Source of the DNA: Bdellovibrionota bacterium FG-2
GTDB taxonomy: Bacteria; Bdellovibrionota; UBA1018
Assembly (NCBI GenBank): GCA_051382305.1
Contig: JBBCAV010000153.1
Span: forward strand, 1 to 64,000
Direction of reading: 5' to 3'
DNA length: 64,000 bases
In this document: one piece after another, positions 39,382-53,467 of the stretch
Layout of the letters: each line of letters opens with the position of its first letter
Numbering within the stretch: the first letter of the stretch is position 1
Notes under the pieces: model-generated
Told to the model about the DNA's origin: nothing
The model's database searches: none
The model's input: the letters and a program-made list of their open reading frames with translations, nothing else
Program-made: the position numbers and the translations under genes

Positions 39382-39978
39382 ATGAAAACAATAATGCTGA
39401 TACTCGCCCTGAGCTTAACAAGCCTAATGCAATTACACAGTGCCCTTGCAAACGATCGCGAAGATCTCACCCCCGGTTTGCTCGATGAGATTCAAGCCGT
39501 AAAAGATGGCATGAAAAAAACGCGAGTCTACTTGAGTCGCTCACTACACATCAATCGTACCGACTATATCGGAGAATCCGACAGCAGTGTCGTCGGCGGC
39601 GGACTTGAGAAGACCATTAAAGACAAACGTCGCAATGAAGACATTCCCAGAAACGCAAGAGGCCAAATCATCGAAATCAAAGACGAGCACGTCTGGATCG
39701 CTTTCGACAAAGATTGCGAGAGCAGAGAATGCGCTTTTCATTTTCAATTTCGCGCGCGCGAAAACGATACAAGCCGATTCCCCAAGGAAAAATTCATCTT
39801 CAACAACGCCCCGAAGAATCCGGATTTTAGAACCGTGACTTATCGAGCAACCAGTTTTTGGTTCGGGATTTTGAGAACCTCCGAAATCATTCATCTCGAA
39901 GTCAAATACGACGAAATTCACGAGTTTATCACCGAGTACAAAACTCACCCTGGCGTGGATGCCCCGGACGAGCGCTAA
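39382..39978 (+). CDS. Secreted hypothetical protein
   Basis: Signal peptide MKTIMLILALSLT...SALA. Confidence 0.6.
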   Translation: MKTIMLILALSLTSLMQLHSALANDREDLTPGLLDEIQAVKDGMKKTRVYLSRSLHINRTDYIGESDSSVVGGGLEKTIKDKRRNEDIPRNARGQIIEIKDEHVWIAFDKDCESRECAFHFQFRARENDTSRFPKEKFIFNNAPKNPDFRTVTYRATSFWFGILRTSEIIHLEVKYDEIHEFITEYKTHPGVDAPDER

Positions 39979-41501
39979 GCGATCTTCTTAACCGGCACCA
40001 CCACGGCGCTCGGGGACCCACCTACTTTTCTAAAGTCCGAAGCCGTGATGCGAAACTTGCGCAACATACGCAGAAAATTACTGCGATCAATTTTCGATTC
40101 TTGAGAGGCCTTACTCACATTCCCATGGTGACGGGTGAGCATCCCCGTCAGAAACTCTTTTTCGAAATTCTCACTCCAGCGTTTCTTAAGATCTCGATAT
40201 ACGCCCAGCTGAGACGTGGATTTTACCGGGAGATTTAGCGTCTGAGCAACTACTCGCAGCTCAGACGTCTTAGGAAGAGCAAGCAATCTCGCGCCAACAG
40301 TCTCCCCACCCTGGAATACAAGCGCCACCCGCTCAATCACGTTTTGTAATTCACGAACGTTACCCGGCCACGCGTAGCCCTCTAGCGCCGCGCGCGCTTC
40401 TTCGCTAAACCCAGAGAAGACTTTTCCGCGCGCGGAAAACGCGTCCCTTGAAAACTGCTCGGCAAACGGGACGATATCAGAGCGCCTTTCACGAAGCGCC
40501 GGGAGCTGTAAAACGACGCGACTCAAACGATGAAACAGATCCTCGCGAAACCCGCCTTCCGCCACTCGCTTGTTGAGATCCACGTGAGTTGCGGCAATCA
40601 CCCGAACATCTGTCTTTTCGTCTTGCGTGGCGCCCACGCGCCTAAACACTTTTTCTTGAAGTACGCGCAGGAGTTTAGCTTGAAGTTTTGGATCCATTTC
40701 ACCAATTTCATCTAAGAAAAGTGTGCCGCCTTTTGCGATTTCAAAAAGGCCGCGCTTTAGCGCCACGGCGCCCGTGAAGGCGCCCTTCTCATGACCAAAG
40801 AGTTCAGACTCCAAAAGCTGCTCATTAAAATTTGCACAGTTCACGGCTACCCAAGGTCCCTGCGCACGCGCCGAATCAGAATGGGTTCGACGCGCAATCC
40901 CCTCCTTACCAGTTCCACTCTCTCCCAAGATCAGGACGGTAGGTTCTTCTACGCCCTGCCTTAAGGCCTCGCGCCGCAAAACACTGAGCCACTCATTGAC
41001 CTTGGACATCGACGGATCTTTTGAAGCAATCCAGCTCTTCACCAATCGGGCGCCCCCGCCCTGCGCCTCAGCTCTAACGGCACGCGCTTCCAGCCTTGCG
41101 AGCAGGTCTTCATTTTCGCGTTCTAAAAAGACTTCGGCCTGCGCTCTTTTAACAGCGATGCTCAGCTCATCTAAATCAAAGGGCTTCTCCAAGTAATCCA
41201 CGGCACCTAACTTGAGTGCCGAGATCGCCACATCTTTTTCGCCATGCCCAGTGATCATAATGACCCGAAGCCGCGGAAATATCTCTTTGGCCCAAGCCAT
41301 CAAAGCCAGCCCATCTTTGCCGGGCATTTTTAGATCCGTGATCAATACCCCAAAACCAGGGGTCAAGGCTTTTTCGGCCTCTTCGGCCCCATGTGCGGTT
41401 ACGACCTCAAACCCCTCACGCTCCAAACGCGACTTCAGGAGTTTTCTAATCGTTTCTTCATCATCCACAACCAGCACTTTTTGCGGCATCTGATTTTTCA
41501 C
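39975..41501 (-). CDS. sigma54-dependent response regulator (NtrC-family enhancer-binding protein)
   Basis: Receiver (VVDDE, TDLKMP, KPF); AAA+ GESGTGKE, GAFTGA, LFLDEIG, WPGNVREL; Fis-type HTH. Confidence 0.95.
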   Translation of the reverse strand: MKNQMPQKVLVVDDEETIRKLLKSRLEREGFEVVTAHGAEEAEKALTPGFGVLITDLKMPGKDGLALMAWAKEIFPRLRVIMITGHGEKDVAISALKLGAVDYLEKPFDLDELSIAVKRAQAEVFLERENEDLLARLEARAVRAEAQGGGARLVKSWIASKDPSMSKVNEWLSVLRREALRQGVEEPTVLILGESGTGKEGIARRTHSDSARAQGPWVAVNCANFNEQLLESELFGHEKGAFTGAVALKRGLFEIAKGGTLFLDEIGEMDPKLQAKLLRVLQEKVFRRVGATQDEKTDVRVIAATHVDLNKRVAEGGFREDLFHRLSRVVLQLPALRERRSDIVPFAEQFSRDAFSARGKVFSGFSEEARAALEGYAWPGNVRELQNVIERVALVFQGGETVGARLLALPKTSELRVVAQTLNLPVKSTSQLGVYRDLKKRWSENFEKEFLTGMLTRHHGNVSKASQESKIDRSNFLRMLRKFRITASDFRKVGGSPSAVVVPVKKIA

Positions 41502-42718
41502 CCTAATTCCCTAAAATCTCTTGGTATGCGAACTAAAAACACCGTCCCCTTGCCCATTTCACTTTCAACGCGGATCGAACCATGAAGCTTTGAAATCATC
41601 CCATAACTTAGACTCAAACCTAGCCCCATGCCCTTACCAACTTCTTTTGTCGTAAAAAAGGGATTGAAAGCCTTGGATTTGGTGCGCTCATTCATGCCGG
41701 CGCCGTCATCACTAAACTGGACCTCAACAAACTCACCGTTAATTCGCGTCGTAATTGAAACTTTCCCAGAGCCCCGCCCTGTCGCCTCAATCGCATCCCG
41801 CGCATTAGTGGCAAGATTAATAAACACCTGCTCCAACTGAAGCGCGTTAGCATAGACCGGAGGAAGCTCCTGGCCGTAGCAACGGGTGACTTGAATTCCC
41901 CGCGTGACGAACTGTCGGGCTAGCATTTTAAGGGCTTCTTCAATACGATCATGGACATTCGTGAATTCGTGGCTCTCCGTTGATTTTCGTGTAAATGCGC
42001 GCAGATAATCAATGATTTTAGCCATCTTGTCAGCGTTGCTGATCACTTCTTGCAAACCGTCTTGGGTTTGCTTGAAGCCCTCTTGATTCGCAATCAAGGG
42101 CAGCGCAATCGCCTGCAGCTCCTGAGCATAACCTCTGATCCCCTGTAACGGTTGATTAAGCTCGTGTGCGATGCCTGCCGCAAGTTCTCCCAGTGCCGCC
42201 ATCTTGCCCGATTGCACCAGCGTTTCTTGCATCGAGTGAAGCTCCGCATTTTGCTTTTCGAGCTGAAAGTAGGCGTTTCTTAGTTCCGCGTGTTTTGTGA
42301 TGAGCTCCCGCTCCATGCGCTTTTTCTCGCTCACATCTCGAAAAATCGCGAGCGACAGCTTGGAGTGACTCCCCTGCACACGCCGGACACTCACATCGAC
42401 CAACGTTACATACCCATCTTTTCTCACCACGGCGATATCTTCATACGTGCCCGCTATCTTAAACGTTTCTCGCGCCAGCGGCCTTGCTCGTTCAGGGATT
42501 CGGTGTTTTGTGGGATCGGGAATCAAGAGCTGAATGGATTCCCCAATAAGTTCTTCTTTGAGATACCCCGTCAGCTCCTCGCCGGCCTTATTGAGCGCAT
42601 CGACTTTGCCCGTGGGAAGCACTGTTAAAATTGCGTCCGAAGCCTGGTCAAATAGGATTTGATAATTATTTTCGGACTCCGCTTCTGCTATGCGAAGATG
42701 TTTTCGATTAGTGGGCAT
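41498..42718 (-). CDS. Cytoplasmic PAS-domain sensor histidine kinase
   Basis: PAS domain; AGIAHELNQP H-box; NLATNARDA; DDGAG; FFTTK; GMGLGL; no TM. Confidence 0.95.
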   Translation of the reverse strand: MPTNRKHLRIAEAESENNYQILFDQASDAILTVLPTGKVDALNKAGEELTGYLKEELIGESIQLLIPDPTKHRIPERARPLARETFKIAGTYEDIAVVRKDGYVTLVDVSVRRVQGSHSKLSLAIFRDVSEKKRMERELITKHAELRNAYFQLEKQNAELHSMQETLVQSGKMAALGELAAGIAHELNQPLQGIRGYAQELQAIALPLIANQEGFKQTQDGLQEVISNADKMAKIIDYLRAFTRKSTESHEFTNVHDRIEEALKMLARQFVTRGIQVTRCYGQELPPVYANALQLEQVFINLATNARDAIEATGRGSGKVSITTRINGEFVEVQFSDDGAGMNERTKSKAFNPFFTTKEVGKGMGLGLSLSYGMISKLHGSIRVESEMGKGTVFLVRIPRDFRELG

Positions 42719-43595
42719 GCAAAAACGCGCTGGCCCTTTCTATTTCTTTTCCCAATTCCTCTTCGAGGACGGGAATTTCCTCCGGCTTAATTTTCAAGGG
42801 GGCCAACATATCGGGCGTGATGTCGCCAGCAGAGAAGTCCCCGGATTTTCCGATTTTATTCTTCACACAAAGCGCGTTGGCTAGCCTCACCATGTGGATC
42901 ACGGGCTTGGCCGAAGCTAAAACGCTATCCATTTTTGAAACATCAAAATGATGATAGCGAATCGCGAGACGAATAACCTGAGGCAACCCCCATTTTGAGG
43001 CAATCACCTCGCCCAAGAAAGAGTGTCCTGGAAGTTCAAATTCTTTTTCGACCTCCACGAAGGAGCATTCACGTTTGAGGGTTTCCTTGATGATTCCCTG
43101 TAGGCGTTCAGGATCAATTTTATGGAGCACAAGTTTCCCAATGTCGTGAAGCAGTCCACAGGTAAACGCCTCTTCAGGCTTGGGATGTTTAATGCGTTTC
43201 GCGAGCATCTCGGCGCCCACGGCGGTTGCAAGTGCGTGCCGCCAAAAATCCATCATGGGAAAATCTTCTAACTCGATATCTGGAAAAACCGAGAAAACGG
43301 AGAGCCCCAACACGAGTTGCGCAAGCGTATTGAAACCCAAGAAGGCCAACGCCCGCTGAACATCGGTCACCCCCCCTGGAATGGCATAATACGAGGAATT
43401 CACAAGCCGCAGGATCTTGGCCGTCAGGACCTGGTCCTTTTTAAGCACCATGGCAATGTCCGAGCTTGAAGAACTGGGATCGTTAATGAGCTCGTTGACG
43501 CACATCGCAACAACCGGAAGAGTTGGAATATCTTGAAGTTTTTCAAGCAGAGCCGAGTATTCGGATTGAGTTTTTTTCGTATTGGGTGTGGCCAT
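42708..43595 (-). CDS. HDOD-domain protein
   Basis: IPTLP, DQVLTAKILRLVNS, FWRHAL, GLLHDIGK, WGLP...AIRYHH. Confidence 0.93.
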   Translation of the reverse strand: MATPNTKKTQSEYSALLEKLQDIPTLPVVAMCVNELINDPSSSSSDIAMVLKKDQVLTAKILRLVNSSYYAIPGGVTDVQRALAFLGFNTLAQLVLGLSVFSVFPDIELEDFPMMDFWRHALATAVGAEMLAKRIKHPKPEEAFTCGLLHDIGKLVLHKIDPERLQGIIKETLKRECSFVEVEKEFELPGHSFLGEVIASKWGLPQVIRLAIRYHHFDVSKMDSVLASAKPVIHMVRLANALCVKNKIGKSGDFSAGDITPDMLAPLKIKPEEIPVLEEELGKEIERASAFLHAH

Positions 43596-43734: not shown

Positions 43735-43809
<75 letters not shown>

Positions 43810-46377: not shown

Positions 46378-47370
46378 TCAATACACCCGCTCCGGCGGCA
46401 AATACTCAATCATCGCGCCCTGCCCGACATTCACGGTAAACGTCCACCCCGTATGAACATATCCATCCGCCTCAACCAAGCCCGTGGGCGGATTGGGAAA
46501 CCGCGAAATTTTCCGCCATGACGAATCCACGGCTGAATCAAACTCATCGATTCCTGAGCTTTGCATTCTGCGGATTTCAATGAGCCCCCCCTCTCGATCC
46601 AAAATCACATCCACCACGGTCGAATACTCTCCCGGCCGCACTTGCCTTCGGTAGCCAATGGAGCGAATCCGAGACTGCCAAACAGGACCAATGGCTTCAT
46701 ACAAACGAGCGTAAAAAGTATAAAAAATAGATTCCTTTGTATTCAAAAGATTCTCAGCCCCCTCCGGCAAATCCTTTTCACGTAGCGCCTGATCGCCCCC
46801 CTCCGAGCCGGGCTGCACTTGTTGAGCTTGCGATTTGCGCCCGTCTTTTCCTACTTTTTTGCGATCGGGAGCAAATTTCATGGGAATCCCCAAATTCCCC
46901 AGCTTTACTTTGGATCGCGACTTAGCGGCTTCGTTTTGAGCTTTGGGCAGTGCATTTTCCTGGGGCTGCGCCTGCTGAAAAGGAACTGCGGGCTTAGGAA
47001 TCACATTCGTTTGCTTTGCCCGTTGTTCTTTTTCCACCCGAACATTACGTGCGGATTCATAGCGTGCGTCCTTAGGCGCCTCCTTTTCGCTGGGCGCTTT
47101 GGGATCTTTATCGAGGAGAAACCCCGTAGGTTTCTTCTCTTGGTCACGCCATTGCTTGCGGATCGCCTCGAGTTTATTCATATCAATCTGCTTAACTTCG
47201 ACAGGCATCGGACGAGCAGGCGAACTCCACTGAACCTTCACCCACATAAAAAGCAGATGAAAAATCAAAGCCGCGAGCAAAGCAAGCCACACCCCGGAGC
47301 GTCGCCATGGAGAAGGCTGATCCATACTCACTGAAGAAGTAAATGAGGAGGTGATAGCAGACGAAGACAT
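46378..47370 (-). CDS. TonB/TolA-like energy transducer (TonB C-terminal domain)
   Basis: Single TM with ALIFH motif, Lys/Pro/Gln-rich linker, C-terminal SSGIDEFDSAV..FPNPP. Confidence 0.85.
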   Translation of the reverse strand: MSSSAITSSFTSSVSMDQPSPWRRSGVWLALLAALIFHLLFMWVKVQWSSPARPMPVEVKQIDMNKLEAIRKQWRDQEKKPTGFLLDKDPKAPSEKEAPKDARYESARNVRVEKEQRAKQTNVIPKPAVPFQQAQPQENALPKAQNEAAKSRSKVKLGNLGIPMKFAPDRKKVGKDGRKSQAQQVQPGSEGGDQALREKDLPEGAENLLNTKESIFYTFYARLYEAIGPVWQSRIRSIGYRRQVRPGEYSTVVDVILDREGGLIEIRRMQSSGIDEFDSAVDSSWRKISRFPNPPTGLVEADGYVHTGWTFTVNVGQGAMIEYLPPERVY

Positions 47371-47415
47371 AACTCAAACCTAACTTGAGTTGACCTGCAA
47401 TCCAAGCACCTTGAA

Positions 47416-47468
47416 GGTGATTCCAAAATGGAACCATTTTGCGCCCCCAGAACGCCTTTGGAACCACC
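47416..47468. promoter_or_regulatory. Putative upstream activator sequences for a sigma54 enhancer-binding protein
   Basis: Dyad TGATTCCAAAATGGAACCA (47418-47436) and inverted half-site TTTGGAACCACC (47457-47468). Confidence 0.55.
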
Positions 47469-47618
47469 TACTAGTTGCGCACAGCTCAATAGAAACACTC
47501 AGACACAGATCTCAAAAGAAGAGGTCAAAAAAAACATGGCCTCAAAAGGCCTTAATTATAGGGCAACATCAAAAATCACAAAAACAACTGCCCACAAAAC
47601 CTCCCAAACCCGGCCAAC

Positions 47619-47634
47619 TGGCACAAGCATTGCT
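47619..47634 (+). promoter_or_regulatory. sigma54 (-24/-12) promoter, consensus match
   Basis: TGGCACAAGCATTGCT matches TGGCAC-N5-TTGCW exactly; no + strand CDS follows. Confidence 0.8.
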
Positions 47635-47644
47635 AACTGCTAAA

Positions 47645-47760
47645 TCCGTTCGGCTGCTTTCACCACTGAGAAAAATCTTTTCCTTTCCAAAAAAAGGAAC
47701 ATTCCCCTCCATAGAGATTTAGCTCAACCAAGGGTGGTGAAAGCAGCCATTCGTTTTTTT
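47645..47760 (+). ncRNA. Putative sigma54-dependent small RNA (novel candidate)
   Basis: Predicted +1 near 47645; 15-bp perfect closing stem GGCTGCTTTCACCAC/GTGGTGAAAGCAGCC, nested inner stems, unpaired CCCCTCC, T7 run at 47754-47760. Confidence 0.65.
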
Positions 47761-47778
47761 GCGGATTAAATCTCAACT

Positions 47779-48582
47779 TTAAGACATTGCGCGGATCAAG
47801 AACCCGACGAGCATAACGGCTAAGAAAACCAACCCCAGCTTCGCGTCTGAGCGCGCCGCAAAAACCCCCAGCGACTCCAGAAAACTGTTTTCCAAAAATG
47901 AGCGATTCAATGCCCGCGGCGTGTCCACGACTTGCTGCAACTGTTGAAATTCGCTTTCTTTTTGCGCAAAAGACGGAAAAAACTTTTCAATCGCAAAGTA
48001 AAGCTCGCGGGCAACACCCAGCGATTTTCTACAAGAAGCGCACGCCATTAGGTGATTTTGCACAAAAAGCTGCTCAGATTTTTTCTCAAATTCATCATCC
48101 AAAAAACGCTGCGTCCATGGCCTCAGCGTATCGTATTCAGGGCATTTGGCTCCGGTTTGCGAATTCCCAACAGGATAACGCATTGCAGCCCCAAGCCCCG
48201 CCTCTCCCAACTGTACCCGCGCACGCCAAGCTTGCTCCTGCACCCATTCCACATCCTCATCAAAAACTCGAGCCAATCTCTGATAGGACCAGTTTCCACG
48301 ATGCAGCGCAACAAGCAGAAAGCGATGTTCTGGAAACAAACGATAAAATGGATGCCCCAGCAAATGCAAATTCTCTACTAAATTCGCAGGCATCCCCTCG
48401 CGAGTCGCACGTCCAATGAGGGCCGACGCAGCGCGCTCAAGCGTCCTCTCTGAGGTAAGCTCAAGCGACGAAACTGCACTGAGGGTCTCCGTTACAATCC
48501 GAACCGAACGCACAGGATCCGCCCAAAGTGCGACTCCTAGCTCAGTAAAAGTGCGAATTTCCTCACGATCAAGACGCGACAT
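47779..48582 (-). CDS. Hypothetical membrane protein: sigma region-4-like HTH plus zf-HC2 (ZAS) motif plus C-terminal TM
   Basis: LFPEHRFLLVALHRGNWSYQRLARVF...WRARVQL resembles ECF region 4; HLMACASC is HxxxCxxC; hydrophobic C-terminus. Confidence 0.6.
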   Translation of the reverse strand: MSRLDREEIRTFTELGVALWADPVRSVRIVTETLSAVSSLELTSERTLERAASALIGRATREGMPANLVENLHLLGHPFYRLFPEHRFLLVALHRGNWSYQRLARVFDEDVEWVQEQAWRARVQLGEAGLGAAMRYPVGNSQTGAKCPEYDTLRPWTQRFLDDEFEKKSEQLFVQNHLMACASCRKSLGVARELYFAIEKFFPSFAQKESEFQQLQQVVDTPRALNRSFLENSFLESLGVFAARSDAKLGLVFLAVMLVGFLIRAMS

Positions 48583-48684
48583 GGATTTCACAATACCTCT
48601 GTACCCCTTGACAGCCCTCACATTTTTGAGAGAGGCTGCCCTTGCATTGAAGTTTAACACAATGTTTTGTGGAGGGGAAATTCA

Positions 48685-52292: not shown

Positions 52293-53326
52293 TCACATGC
52301 AGACCCCCAATTGATATGTCATTTTTTGCCTGAAACAGGCCCTAATTCGACCACTAAGTTTTCTGGCAATGGCGACGATTGCCCTTTTCTTGCCGCGCGT
52401 GCCAGCGATCCGTTCGAACATGGCTTTAAGCGCCGGATCTTTATCTATCGCAAACCATGCGGCCTCCACCAATATTTGCCGGACTCGATACGACCCCTGA
52501 TGCGTGATGTGGCCTCTTCTAACGGCGTAAGTCCAGTGAATTTGAACAGCTCCCTCTCATTATTGAATCGCTTTGATAAGTCACCCATCTCGTTTGACAG
52601 TACTCGCGCTCCAATTGGCCCAATGCCCGGCACACTACGGTAAACCTTTTCCAGATGAAGGTCCTTTTTGCTTTGCTCCTGAAGCTTCTTTCGAAGATCC
52701 ACCAACTGTAGGGTCAAAAAACGCCATTGTTCGATCAAGAGATTCAAGGAATCCGAAAGGTCCTCGGGTAATTGCGTTTCTTAGATCTCTTTTAAACGGC
52801 GATTGCAAAGCGTCCGTTTAGGAGTATTGCAAGTGAGCAAGCCAAAATAATAGAGTTTGCTCTTAATTTGTCGAGCAACACGTCCCCGCGATTCTACAAT
52901 CTGCTCCCGCGTGCGTGTTAACTGCCGTCTAAGTTCTTGCGCCCGATCTGGCACAAAAATACAACGAAGTCTTCCCGCCTCTAGCTGCTCCGCGAGTTTT
53001 TTTGAATCCCGGCGATCTGTTTTGACTTTGTCGTTAGCAGCCACTTCAACGGACGCCGCATTGATTACGATGTTGTGAATGCCTCCCTCGACCAATGTAC
53101 GATGTAGTACAAACCCACTAAAACCAGCTTCGTACACGCTAAAAATACTCTTCGCATCCCCAAAGCTCCGCTTCAAGAAGGTGACGACCCCAGTCGGGTT
53201 TGCCTCCATCGTTACCCGATAGGCGATCTCTCCGTCGCATCGAACGGTAATCGAATAAGTTTTTAAATGAACAGCAATTCCCACGTAGACTTTTTTCCCT
53301 TTATAGCTGATTTTCTTAGCGCTCAT
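52293..53326 (-). pseudogene. IS110-family transposase pseudogene
   Basis: YVGIAVH (catalytic D replaced by A), YEAGFSGF, KTDRRDS; in-frame TAA 52781-52783; SVPGIG; GLTP followed by a frameshifting deletion of the SSG loop; LVEAAW and IVAIARKL in the next frame. Confidence 0.9.
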
Positions 53327-53467
53327 ATGAGCCCCCCTTGGTTGGTTTTGTTGTTTGTTTAGCAACCTGTAACAAATGCCAATCAAGGGGATCTTTCAAT
53401 AACTTCTCTCACCACTCCTTGTGATTTTTCAGCATAGCGACTGAGAGTGTGCTAGAATCCTCCCTCT

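Follow-up and report, generated by a model that had tools for sequence, protein, structure and literature searches.

Among the small RNAs (sRNAs) that invite comparison with the one described here, the Qrr RNAs fold into several hairpins and need Hfq, CrcZ and GlmY are protein decoys, and the Pxr sRNA, from Myxococcus, whose members are Gram-negative predators of a neighbouring group, reportedly depends on an NtrC-like system. We report the analysis of 64,000 nucleotides (nt) of DNA from Bdellovibrionota bacterium FG-2 (GenBank assembly GCA_051382305.1, contig JBBCAV010000153.1, positions 1 to 64,000 of the forward strand; the whole of this stretch is referred to as the window), in which positions 47645-47760 of the plus strand are probably a single-copy structured RNA gene of about 115 nt, its predicted transcript forming one rod where Qrr forms several hairpins. 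Passages of PMC10162802 describe the LuxO site TTGCAWWWTGCAA as driving the sigma-54-dependent Qrr RNAs. Other sigma-54-dependent non-coding RNAs, namely GlmY/GlmZ, NrsZ, CrcZ/CrcY and the RpoN-dependent flagellar-tier sRNAs of Campylobacter, are treated in parts of PMC3045617, PMC4253122, PMC6292655 and PMC11187230, and in the portions of this literature cited here NrsZ is processed from repeats, unlike the Bdellovibrionota RNA. The 6C sRNA is described, in passages of PMC6486639, as binding multiple mRNA targets through C-rich loops independently of RNA chaperones, and sections of PMC10433868 and PMC5419742 present RoxS as an sRNA with a C-rich seed.

By analogy, the Bdellovibrionota RNA would resemble Qrr in its control and RsaE/6C, which have a C-rich seed and need no chaperone, in its action. 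Like Qrr, it appears to be encoded by a stand-alone sRNA gene of around 100 nt, with a sigma-54 promoter and a highly conserved single-stranded stretch for pairing, and its putative enhancer likewise has two sites, 5-nt half-sites and a 3-nt A/T spacer (TTGCAWWWTGCAA for LuxO, as given in passages of PMC10162802, against TTCCAWWWTGGAA here), though by the same passages the half-site differs from that of LuxO at one mirrored position. It differs from Qrr in belonging to another phylum and in having no Rfam match; furthermore, the Pfam Hfq model was not found in any of the six carrier genomes searched (G000, which is the genome of the window, G001, G057, G063, G117 and G120; 85-98% complete, so that a gene could have been missed), the control genomes being positive. 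The link to quorum sensing belongs to Qrr. Enhancer-dependent sigma-54 transcription, here predicted, is a likeness to GlmY/GlmZ, NrsZ, CrcZ/CrcY and the Campylobacter sRNAs, but no match of sequence or structure to GlmY/GlmZ, NrsZ or CrcZ/CrcY was found with Rfam. With RsaE/RoxS of the Firmicutes and 6C of the Actinobacteria the RNA shares an exposed, conserved C-rich motif in a setting apparently without the help of Hfq, the pairing with ribosome-binding sites (RBSs) being a prediction in the present case; unlike them it has a sigma-54 promoter and carries a single C-rich stretch in an internal loop instead of several in hairpin loops, and Rfam gives no homology. Neither does the RNA match an Rfam model of Pxr, and we know of no sequence motif common to the two.

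Sequence features of the element

We hold it virtually certain that a conserved structured element is present at this position, and very probable that it represents an independent sRNA transcribed on the plus strand from a sigma-54 promoter. Our best explanation as a whole, which we regard as likely, is that of a stand-alone, sigma-54-dependent and trans-acting sRNA that would pair with RBSs through a C-rich seed without Hfq. The features concerned are these:

47421-47434, putative upstream activator site 1, TTCCAAAATGGAAC, palindrome TTCCAAAATGGAA(C), 198 nt 5' of the -24 box
47459-47464, putative upstream activator site 2, the second TGGAAC half-site, 30 nt after site 1
47619-47634 (+), sigma-54 type -24/-12 promoter TGGCAC-AAGCA-TTGCT (TGGCAC-N5-TTGCT), read from the sequence
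47645-47760 (+), predicted sRNA of about 115 nt, its start inferred from the box and its end from the T run
47652-47666 (+), 5' arm of the basal helix P1, GGCTGCTTTCACCAC, pairing with 47734-47748
47667-47670 and 47723-47726 (+), nested helix TGAG/CTCA, read from the sequence
47673-47679 and 47714-47720 (+), nested helix AAATCT(T)/(G)AGATTT, read from the sequence
47680-47699 (+), apical hairpin TTCCTTT-loop-AAAGGAA, with arms at 47680-47686 and 47693-47699
47700-47712 (+), C-rich segment CATTCCCCTCCAT, equal to CAUUCCCCUCCAU, the presumed seed, unpaired in the minimum-energy fold
47734-47748 (+), 3' arm of P1, GTGGTGAAAGCAGCC, having with the T run the shape of an intrinsic terminator
47754-47760 (+), run of seven T (T7) 3' of the rod, read from the sequence

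The arm GGCTGCTTTCACCAC is the exact reverse complement of GTGGTGAAAGCAGCC, giving a perfect helix of 15 base pairs (bp). For the predicted start, the C of the GC element was taken as position -12. The covariance models R1 and R2 match the window at 47644-47762, and a scan for terminator-like structures called 47732-47752 together with GTTTTTTT. There is no plus-strand gene 3' of the RNA, the next gene (47779-48660) lying on the minus strand. The box, the 15-bp stem with its nested stems, the unpaired C-rich stretch and the T7 run had all been named in an original prediction, made by a model from the letters of the window, and every one of them was confirmed at its position.

Distribution and copy number

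Apart from itself, the element has no match longer than 25 nt within its own genome (4.34 Mb in 433 contigs, 85% complete). A BLAST search of 40 relatives found it in five, across genera and at 77-88% DNA identity; the match begins exactly at the box in the closest relative and at approximately the predicted start of the RNA in the others. The alignment of these relatives (A1) shows no variation in the box, in either arm of the basal helix or in the C-rich stretch. When 185,579 species genomes were scanned for the pattern, 48 matches came out, which fall into groups of nine and of 39: the nine all possess the 5' arm and the box and come from metagenome-assembled genomes labelled Bdellovibrionota, Oligoflexia, Bdellovibrionales, Bacteriovoracaceae or Bdellovibrio sp., while the 39 are without the box and equal in number the chance expectation.

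Within the window's family, a first covariance model, built from the RNA of the window alone and holding no promoter bases, picked up the RNA in 14 genomes out of 75, belonging to 12 genera out of 48; in 41 genomes from the order's other families it matched nothing. These 14 carriers then served to build a second model, which located the RNA in a second order within the class as well, in all nine genomes of one family and one of two of another; with this model it was not found in any of 127 genomes taken from sixteen further families of the phylum. Metagenome contigs supplied nine further members among 80 loci, the remaining 71 being chance matches. Each of the 24 carrier genomes holds a single copy, with one forward-strand match, and the element is therefore not a dispersed repeat of the REP or MITE kind, a reading against which the original prediction had itself cautioned.

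The claim of novelty made at that stage held up in Rfam 15, where at the gathering score no family other than a tRNA matches the window and where, at E values up to 10, the region 47300-47900 gives three matches at chance level only. As no Rfam family matches, the RNA is not a member of Qrr, GlmY/Z, CrcZ, NrsZ, RsaE/RoxS, 6C or Pxr. On the evidence of these searches it constitutes an RNA family that is new and, within the genomes searched, restricted to a single class of Bdellovibrionota.

Conservation of the fold and choice of strand

The plus strand folds at -45.5 kcal/mol (z = -5.7), with none of 200 shuffles as good. The minus strand reaches a comparable -47.0 kcal/mol (z = -5.0), and since both strands fold about equally well the energy by itself gives no strand. 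Pairing extends to 94.1% of cells in the alignment of the 14 family sequences, and compensatory changes are seen at 20 of 33 pairs, among them 6 of 15 pairs in P1 and 5 of 7 in apical helix 4 (94% of cells paired); none of 500 shuffles reached any of five measures, and controls with slid partners gave 37-49% paired. With 24 sequences the compensatory changes extend to 29 of 33 pairs, and 94.1% of cells are paired against a shuffle mean of 78.3% (0 of 500), although these counts were made on model-fitted alignments, which favour structure. As an independent check, every homologue was folded separately, and each yields the same rod.

The 14 sequences leave the strand undecided (14 G-U against 13 A-C), while the 24 sequences, with 47 G-U against 16 A-C, favour the plus strand. 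We assign the RNA to the plus strand because of this G-U excess, the direction of the sigma-54 box and the T run 3' of the rod, at least four T being present within about 12 nt in 16 of 24 homologues as read from the printed sequences. In the second clade, from the second order, the sequence of the basal helix is different, an extra 5' hairpin stands between promoter and rod, and an apical loop CCACC is conserved. This extra hairpin is of the GCCAAA..TTTGGC type (loci L092-L101).

The predicted sigma-54 promoter and putative upstream activator sites

The promoter is conserved together with the hairpin, a point on which the original prediction depended. In the window's family TGGCA[CT]-N5-TTGC[TG] is found 32-35 nt 5' of the rod in 13 of the 14 carriers. 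In the two further families, which make up the second clade, the box lies 44-53 nt before the model match in eight of the nine assessable carriers, one locus being cut by a contig end; the larger distance leaves room for the extra 5' hairpin. Overall, 21 of 23 assessable genomes and eight of nine metagenome members have the box. As the models held no promoter bases, this conservation is independent of the way in which the homologues were detected. The exact sequence TGGCAC-N5-TTGCT occurs 20 times in the 4.34-Mb genome, ten-fold more than the 2.06 expected from base composition. The genome encodes rpoN (Sigma54_DBD at G000:C397, 219 bits) and gives 16 matches to an NtrC-type activator.

Upstream of the box, dyads had been noted at 47416-47468, and these proved to be a conserved pair of sites, with TGGAAC/GTTCCA half-sites in 21 of 21 box-bearing genomes and at least two in 20 of them. 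A k-mer count over the 21 upstream regions recovers GTTCCAA/TTGGAAC in 20. The half-sites fall 47-208 nt upstream of the box, with one more at -290. The first site is usually a palindrome, TTCCA-W3-TGGAA(C), and in 10 of the 13 box-bearing genomes of the window's family the second TGGAAC follows 30-32 nt on, by positions read by eye, a spacing of three helical turns. Apart from these sites the region 5' of the box is not conserved. We infer that the dyads are enhancer sites for a protein of the NtrC family.

Two candidates for such a protein were considered and rejected. An operon on the minus strand (39975-43595), 6 kb upstream of the RNA gene, encodes three proteins: one of the HDOD type, a histidine kinase with a PAS domain, and a response regulator of the NtrC type that carries a sigma-54 interaction domain. 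Orthologues of this regulator (39975-41501) at 60-85% are present in nine of the 13 other family carriers, none of them on the contig of the RNA, and the linkage is thus not conserved. A gene for a different activator lies 5-14 kb 5' of the RNA in G010, G020, G007 and G063, and in G088 at the edge of the fetched stretch; its orthologue in G000 is C381. Of the 127 genomes of the class, 79 contain it, many of them without the RNA, and at the same threshold only one of nine genomes of family f13 does, so that there is no useful co-occurrence.

Elsewhere in the genome, further exact 13-mers of TTCCAAAATGGAA occur at G000:C72:2838, C168:41485 and C293:35998, where about 0.07 would be expected, and none of these three copies has a sigma-54 box within 400 nt. 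Palindromes of the GTTCCA-N4-TGGAAC type occur at G000:C121 (positions 280 and 2201) and at C385 (position 9505), 60-100 nt 5' of perfect boxes (C121:218 minus, C121:2279 plus and C385:9603 plus), beside open reading frames (ORFs) which on reading look like mobile-element genes. Their spacer is one base longer than in the enhancer of the RNA, and they may belong to another regulator.

The C-rich segment and prediction of targets

The sequence UUCCCCUCCA is invariant in 24 of 24 homologues, as is TTCCCCTCCA, while TTCCCCTCCAT is kept in 22 of 24; the invariant stretch is 10 nt long. Its mean predicted probability of being unpaired is 0.88 (minimum 0.54), compared with 0.24-0.46 for the rest of each RNA. 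The original prediction had described an exposed CCUCC loop, and the exposure and invariance stand; the segment does not, however, form a hairpin loop but the 3' side of an asymmetric internal loop. CCUCC, which the seed contains, is the core of the ribosomal anti-Shine-Dalgarno sequence. That the RNA would act by pairing of this seed with RBSs is, in our judgement, somewhat better than an even chance.

The best candidate target is the RBS of a neighbouring alpha/beta-hydrolase gene, 0.9 kb from the RNA gene and two genes away, at which the following sites were read:

48669-48679 (+), candidate target site GUGGAGGGGAA, RBS of the alpha/beta-hydrolase gene, which starts at GTG 48685
G001 and G063, site before the hydrolase orthologue, GUGGAGGGGAAA in both
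G018, site before the hydrolase orthologue, AUGGAGGGGA
G084, site before the hydrolase orthologue, GGAGGGGG
G058, site before the hydrolase orthologue, GAGGGGAAA
G007, site before the hydrolase orthologue differs

The site is complementary to 47702-47712 through 10 Watson-Crick pairs and one G-U, and the duplex of 11 pairs (-22.2 kcal/mol) comes second when 40,482 candidate start regions across the genome are ranked. Six of seven hydrolase orthologues from carrier genomes retain the G-rich site. We consider it possible, though doubtful, that the hydrolase mRNA is a direct target. Further targets must exist beyond it. No common theme emerges from the Pfam labels of the 17 highest-ranked predictions, several of which are internal false starts, and a scan of all carrier loci found no target site common to all. 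The 5' regions of the neighbouring TonB-like and p293 genes, described below, were rejected as targets for want of notable pairing (-11.7 kcal/mol for p293), as was, in the second clade, the hydrolase gene that lies upstream of the RNA and has an ordinary RBS.

Genomic context

The RNA is flanked in the window by two genes of the minus strand:

46378-47370 (-), gene for a protein with a TonB C-terminal domain (Pfam TonB_2, E 2.4e-7)
47779-48660 (-), gene for p293 (293 aa), convergent with the RNA, with no Pfam family above the cut-off

Relatives of the TonB-like protein align from residue 16, and its start may thus be at 47325. Its gene is the upstream neighbour of the RNA in nine of the 14 family carriers, on the same strand in seven and inverted in G000 and G001. 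The gene for p293 was present in the locus around the RNA in 13 of the 14, immediately following it in 12 of them and some 850 nt further on in G057; irrespective of the RNA, 91 of the 127 genomes of the class possess this gene, and p293 is widely conserved in the order as a single-copy protein. Between genera the protein is 33-42% identical, compared with 77-88% for the DNA of the RNA, and this far better conservation of the RNA speaks for its independence from its neighbour. A weak match of p293 to zf-HC2, a zinc-finger anti-sigma family, falls below the cut-off (E 0.039) around an H-x3-C-x2-C motif, and a C-terminal hydrophobic segment can be read in the protein.

One relative is particularly informative. 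In G019 (L249 1-520) the RNA was not found, even with the search filters off; the TonB-like gene and p293 converge there and abut with an overlap of about 10 nt and no spacer, with the hydrolase next door in the same order. That these neighbours abut where the RNA is missing indicates that enhancer, promoter and RNA make up a discrete unit of about 350 nt, which is present or absent as a whole.

In the second and third families a convergent gene directly follows the RNA in eight of ten loci, seven of the eight being similar ORFs of 117-121 aa; of the other two loci, the contig of G119 ends about 70 nt after the RNA and the nearest convergent ORF of G126 is about 270 nt on. The second clade (L092-L101) has a 266-aa alpha/beta-hydrolase upstream of the RNA and, convergent downstream, a 119-aa protein, a 163-aa protein with a weak match to sigma-70 region 4 and a pseudouridine synthase. 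Homology of p293 to the convergent genes of this clade is unsupported (BLASTP E 0.15 and 0.54). Between promoter and enhancer of the RNA, the minus strand at 47538-47551 forms a 5-bp GGCC hairpin followed by ATGTTTTTTT, which could end minus-strand transcripts before the TonB-like gene; the hairpin is not kept in a relative of the same genus. The window holds in addition a tRNA gene (43735-43806, plus strand), which is its sole Rfam match, and a fragment of an IS110-family transposase (52781-53386, minus strand).

Proposed mechanism and alternative explanations

The explanation that we favour would operate as follows, its transcription, activator and pairing targets being inferred. A protein of the NtrC family would bind TTCCA-W3-TGGAA(C) and the second TGGAAC some 160-200 nt upstream and drive RNA polymerase with sigma-54 from TGGCAC-N5-TTGCT, so that the RNA would be made only when the activator is on. 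The transcript would form one long rod, whose G+C-rich base and U run would double as its own intrinsic terminator and which would keep the invariant AUUCCCCUCCAU open in the asymmetric internal loop. The seed would then pair with GGAGGGG-like Shine-Dalgarno regions of target mRNAs and block ribosome binding without Hfq, the hydrolase gene being the best single candidate.

Another proposal is that the element is only an intrinsic terminator, perhaps bidirectional, for the flanking genes, and that the sigma-54 box is a chance match. The rod with its T7 has indeed the shape of a terminator, 18 nt separate it from the stop of the convergent gene, it stands between convergent genes in seven relatives and both of its strands fold well. 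We nevertheless find this scarcely credible: the box and two-site enhancer are conserved along with the element, the 10-nt unpaired stretch is invariant throughout although terminators have no need of it, the minus strand has no T run after the stem, and the same two genes adjoin one another without any hairpin in G019, a genome lacking the RNA, a result that also answers the terminator-only reading admitted by the original prediction. The element might instead have a role in cis, as a sigma-54-driven antisense or convergent transcript which interferes with p293 by read-through or by pairing with a long 3' end of its mRNA. The convergent placement of p293 in nearly all family carriers, the convergent genes of the other two families and the homologues without a T run all speak for such a role, but it would leave the invariant open C-rich stretch unexplained, most members have strong T runs 3' of the rod, and p293 occurs regardless of the RNA and shows no notable pairing at its 5' region; we therefore rate it as highly improbable. 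A small protein has a negligible chance of being the product, as the only long mechanical ORFs (47390-47722 and 47428-47643) run across the promoter region, the predicted RNA contains no ATG or TTG and just two GTG, both in the 3' arm of P1, the substitutions track base pairs and not codons, and the upstream sequence is unconserved outside the enhancer.

CsrA sponges carry repeated GGA loops, and the possibility that the RNA binds a protein or the ribosome, for example as a sponge of an RNA-binding protein or a decoy (through CCUCC) of the 3' end of 16S rRNA, has to be weighed with this in mind. Such a function would account for the extreme conservation, in the window's family, of the paired base GGCUGCUUU/AAAGCAGCC as well as the loop; CsrA is encoded in G000, and no target conserved across all carriers was found. 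The RNA has, however, one GGA-containing hairpin arm only, with no repeated GGA loops, and its base helix varies, with compensation, in the other two families, and we judge a decoy or sponge distinctly improbable.

The sigma-54-dependent, RBS-pairing sRNA is thus the explanation that we retain, and several observations weigh against it besides the comparable fold of the minus strand and the leaning of the pair counts towards structure. Eight of 24 homologues have no T run after the rod, and termination directly after the rod is accordingly not universal; in these the 3' end may be formed further downstream. Two carriers have no box. In G052 (L074) TGACAG..ATGAA is found in its place, which may reflect a swap to a sigma-70-type promoter; a TACAAT hexamer overlaps the replaced box, and 133 nt of upstream sequence are available before the locus ends. 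The other is G126, whose full-length locus also has no half-site within 330 nt upstream. No activator could be assigned by linkage or co-occurrence of the two candidates considered. As for the hydrolase, it is found in seven of the 14 family carriers and in none of the ten carriers of the other two families, being absent from 17 of 24; a similar G-rich site precedes its orthologues in two of three genomes without a detected RNA; and many of the top-ranked predicted sites lie at false internal starts.

Conclusions

Our literature searches brought up no work on a sigma-54-dependent sRNA in Bdellovibrionota, a negative that does not cover the text of the one Bdellovibrio transcriptome study among their results, PMC3627812. 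An understudied phylum thus gains a candidate sigma-54 sRNA, with a complete module of enhancer, promoter, folded RNA with invariant seed, and terminator that can be read from the DNA and is conserved over two orders. A Gram-negative and apparently Hfq-less lineage would, furthermore, be added to the users of C-rich anti-Shine-Dalgarno seeds, and the alignment of 24 genomes with its model could seed an entry for a new RNA family.

By analogy, the LuxO-like layout of the enhancer suggests that the same control logic arose twice. It is conceivable, though we think it unlikely, that a LuxO-like signalling switch has this RNA as its output in a branch of the Bdellovibrionota that lacks Hfq, the RNA being then a functional analogue of Qrr of independent origin. 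Were this true, the RNA would accumulate when the activator is phosphorylated, and a near-copy of the anti-Shine-Dalgarno sequence would silence a class of mRNAs with extra-strong G-rich RBSs, such as those of secreted hydrolases. The rod would then be scaffold, seed display and terminator at once, a compact sRNA design new to description, and the RNA would set a lifestyle or density-dependent state of the bacterium.

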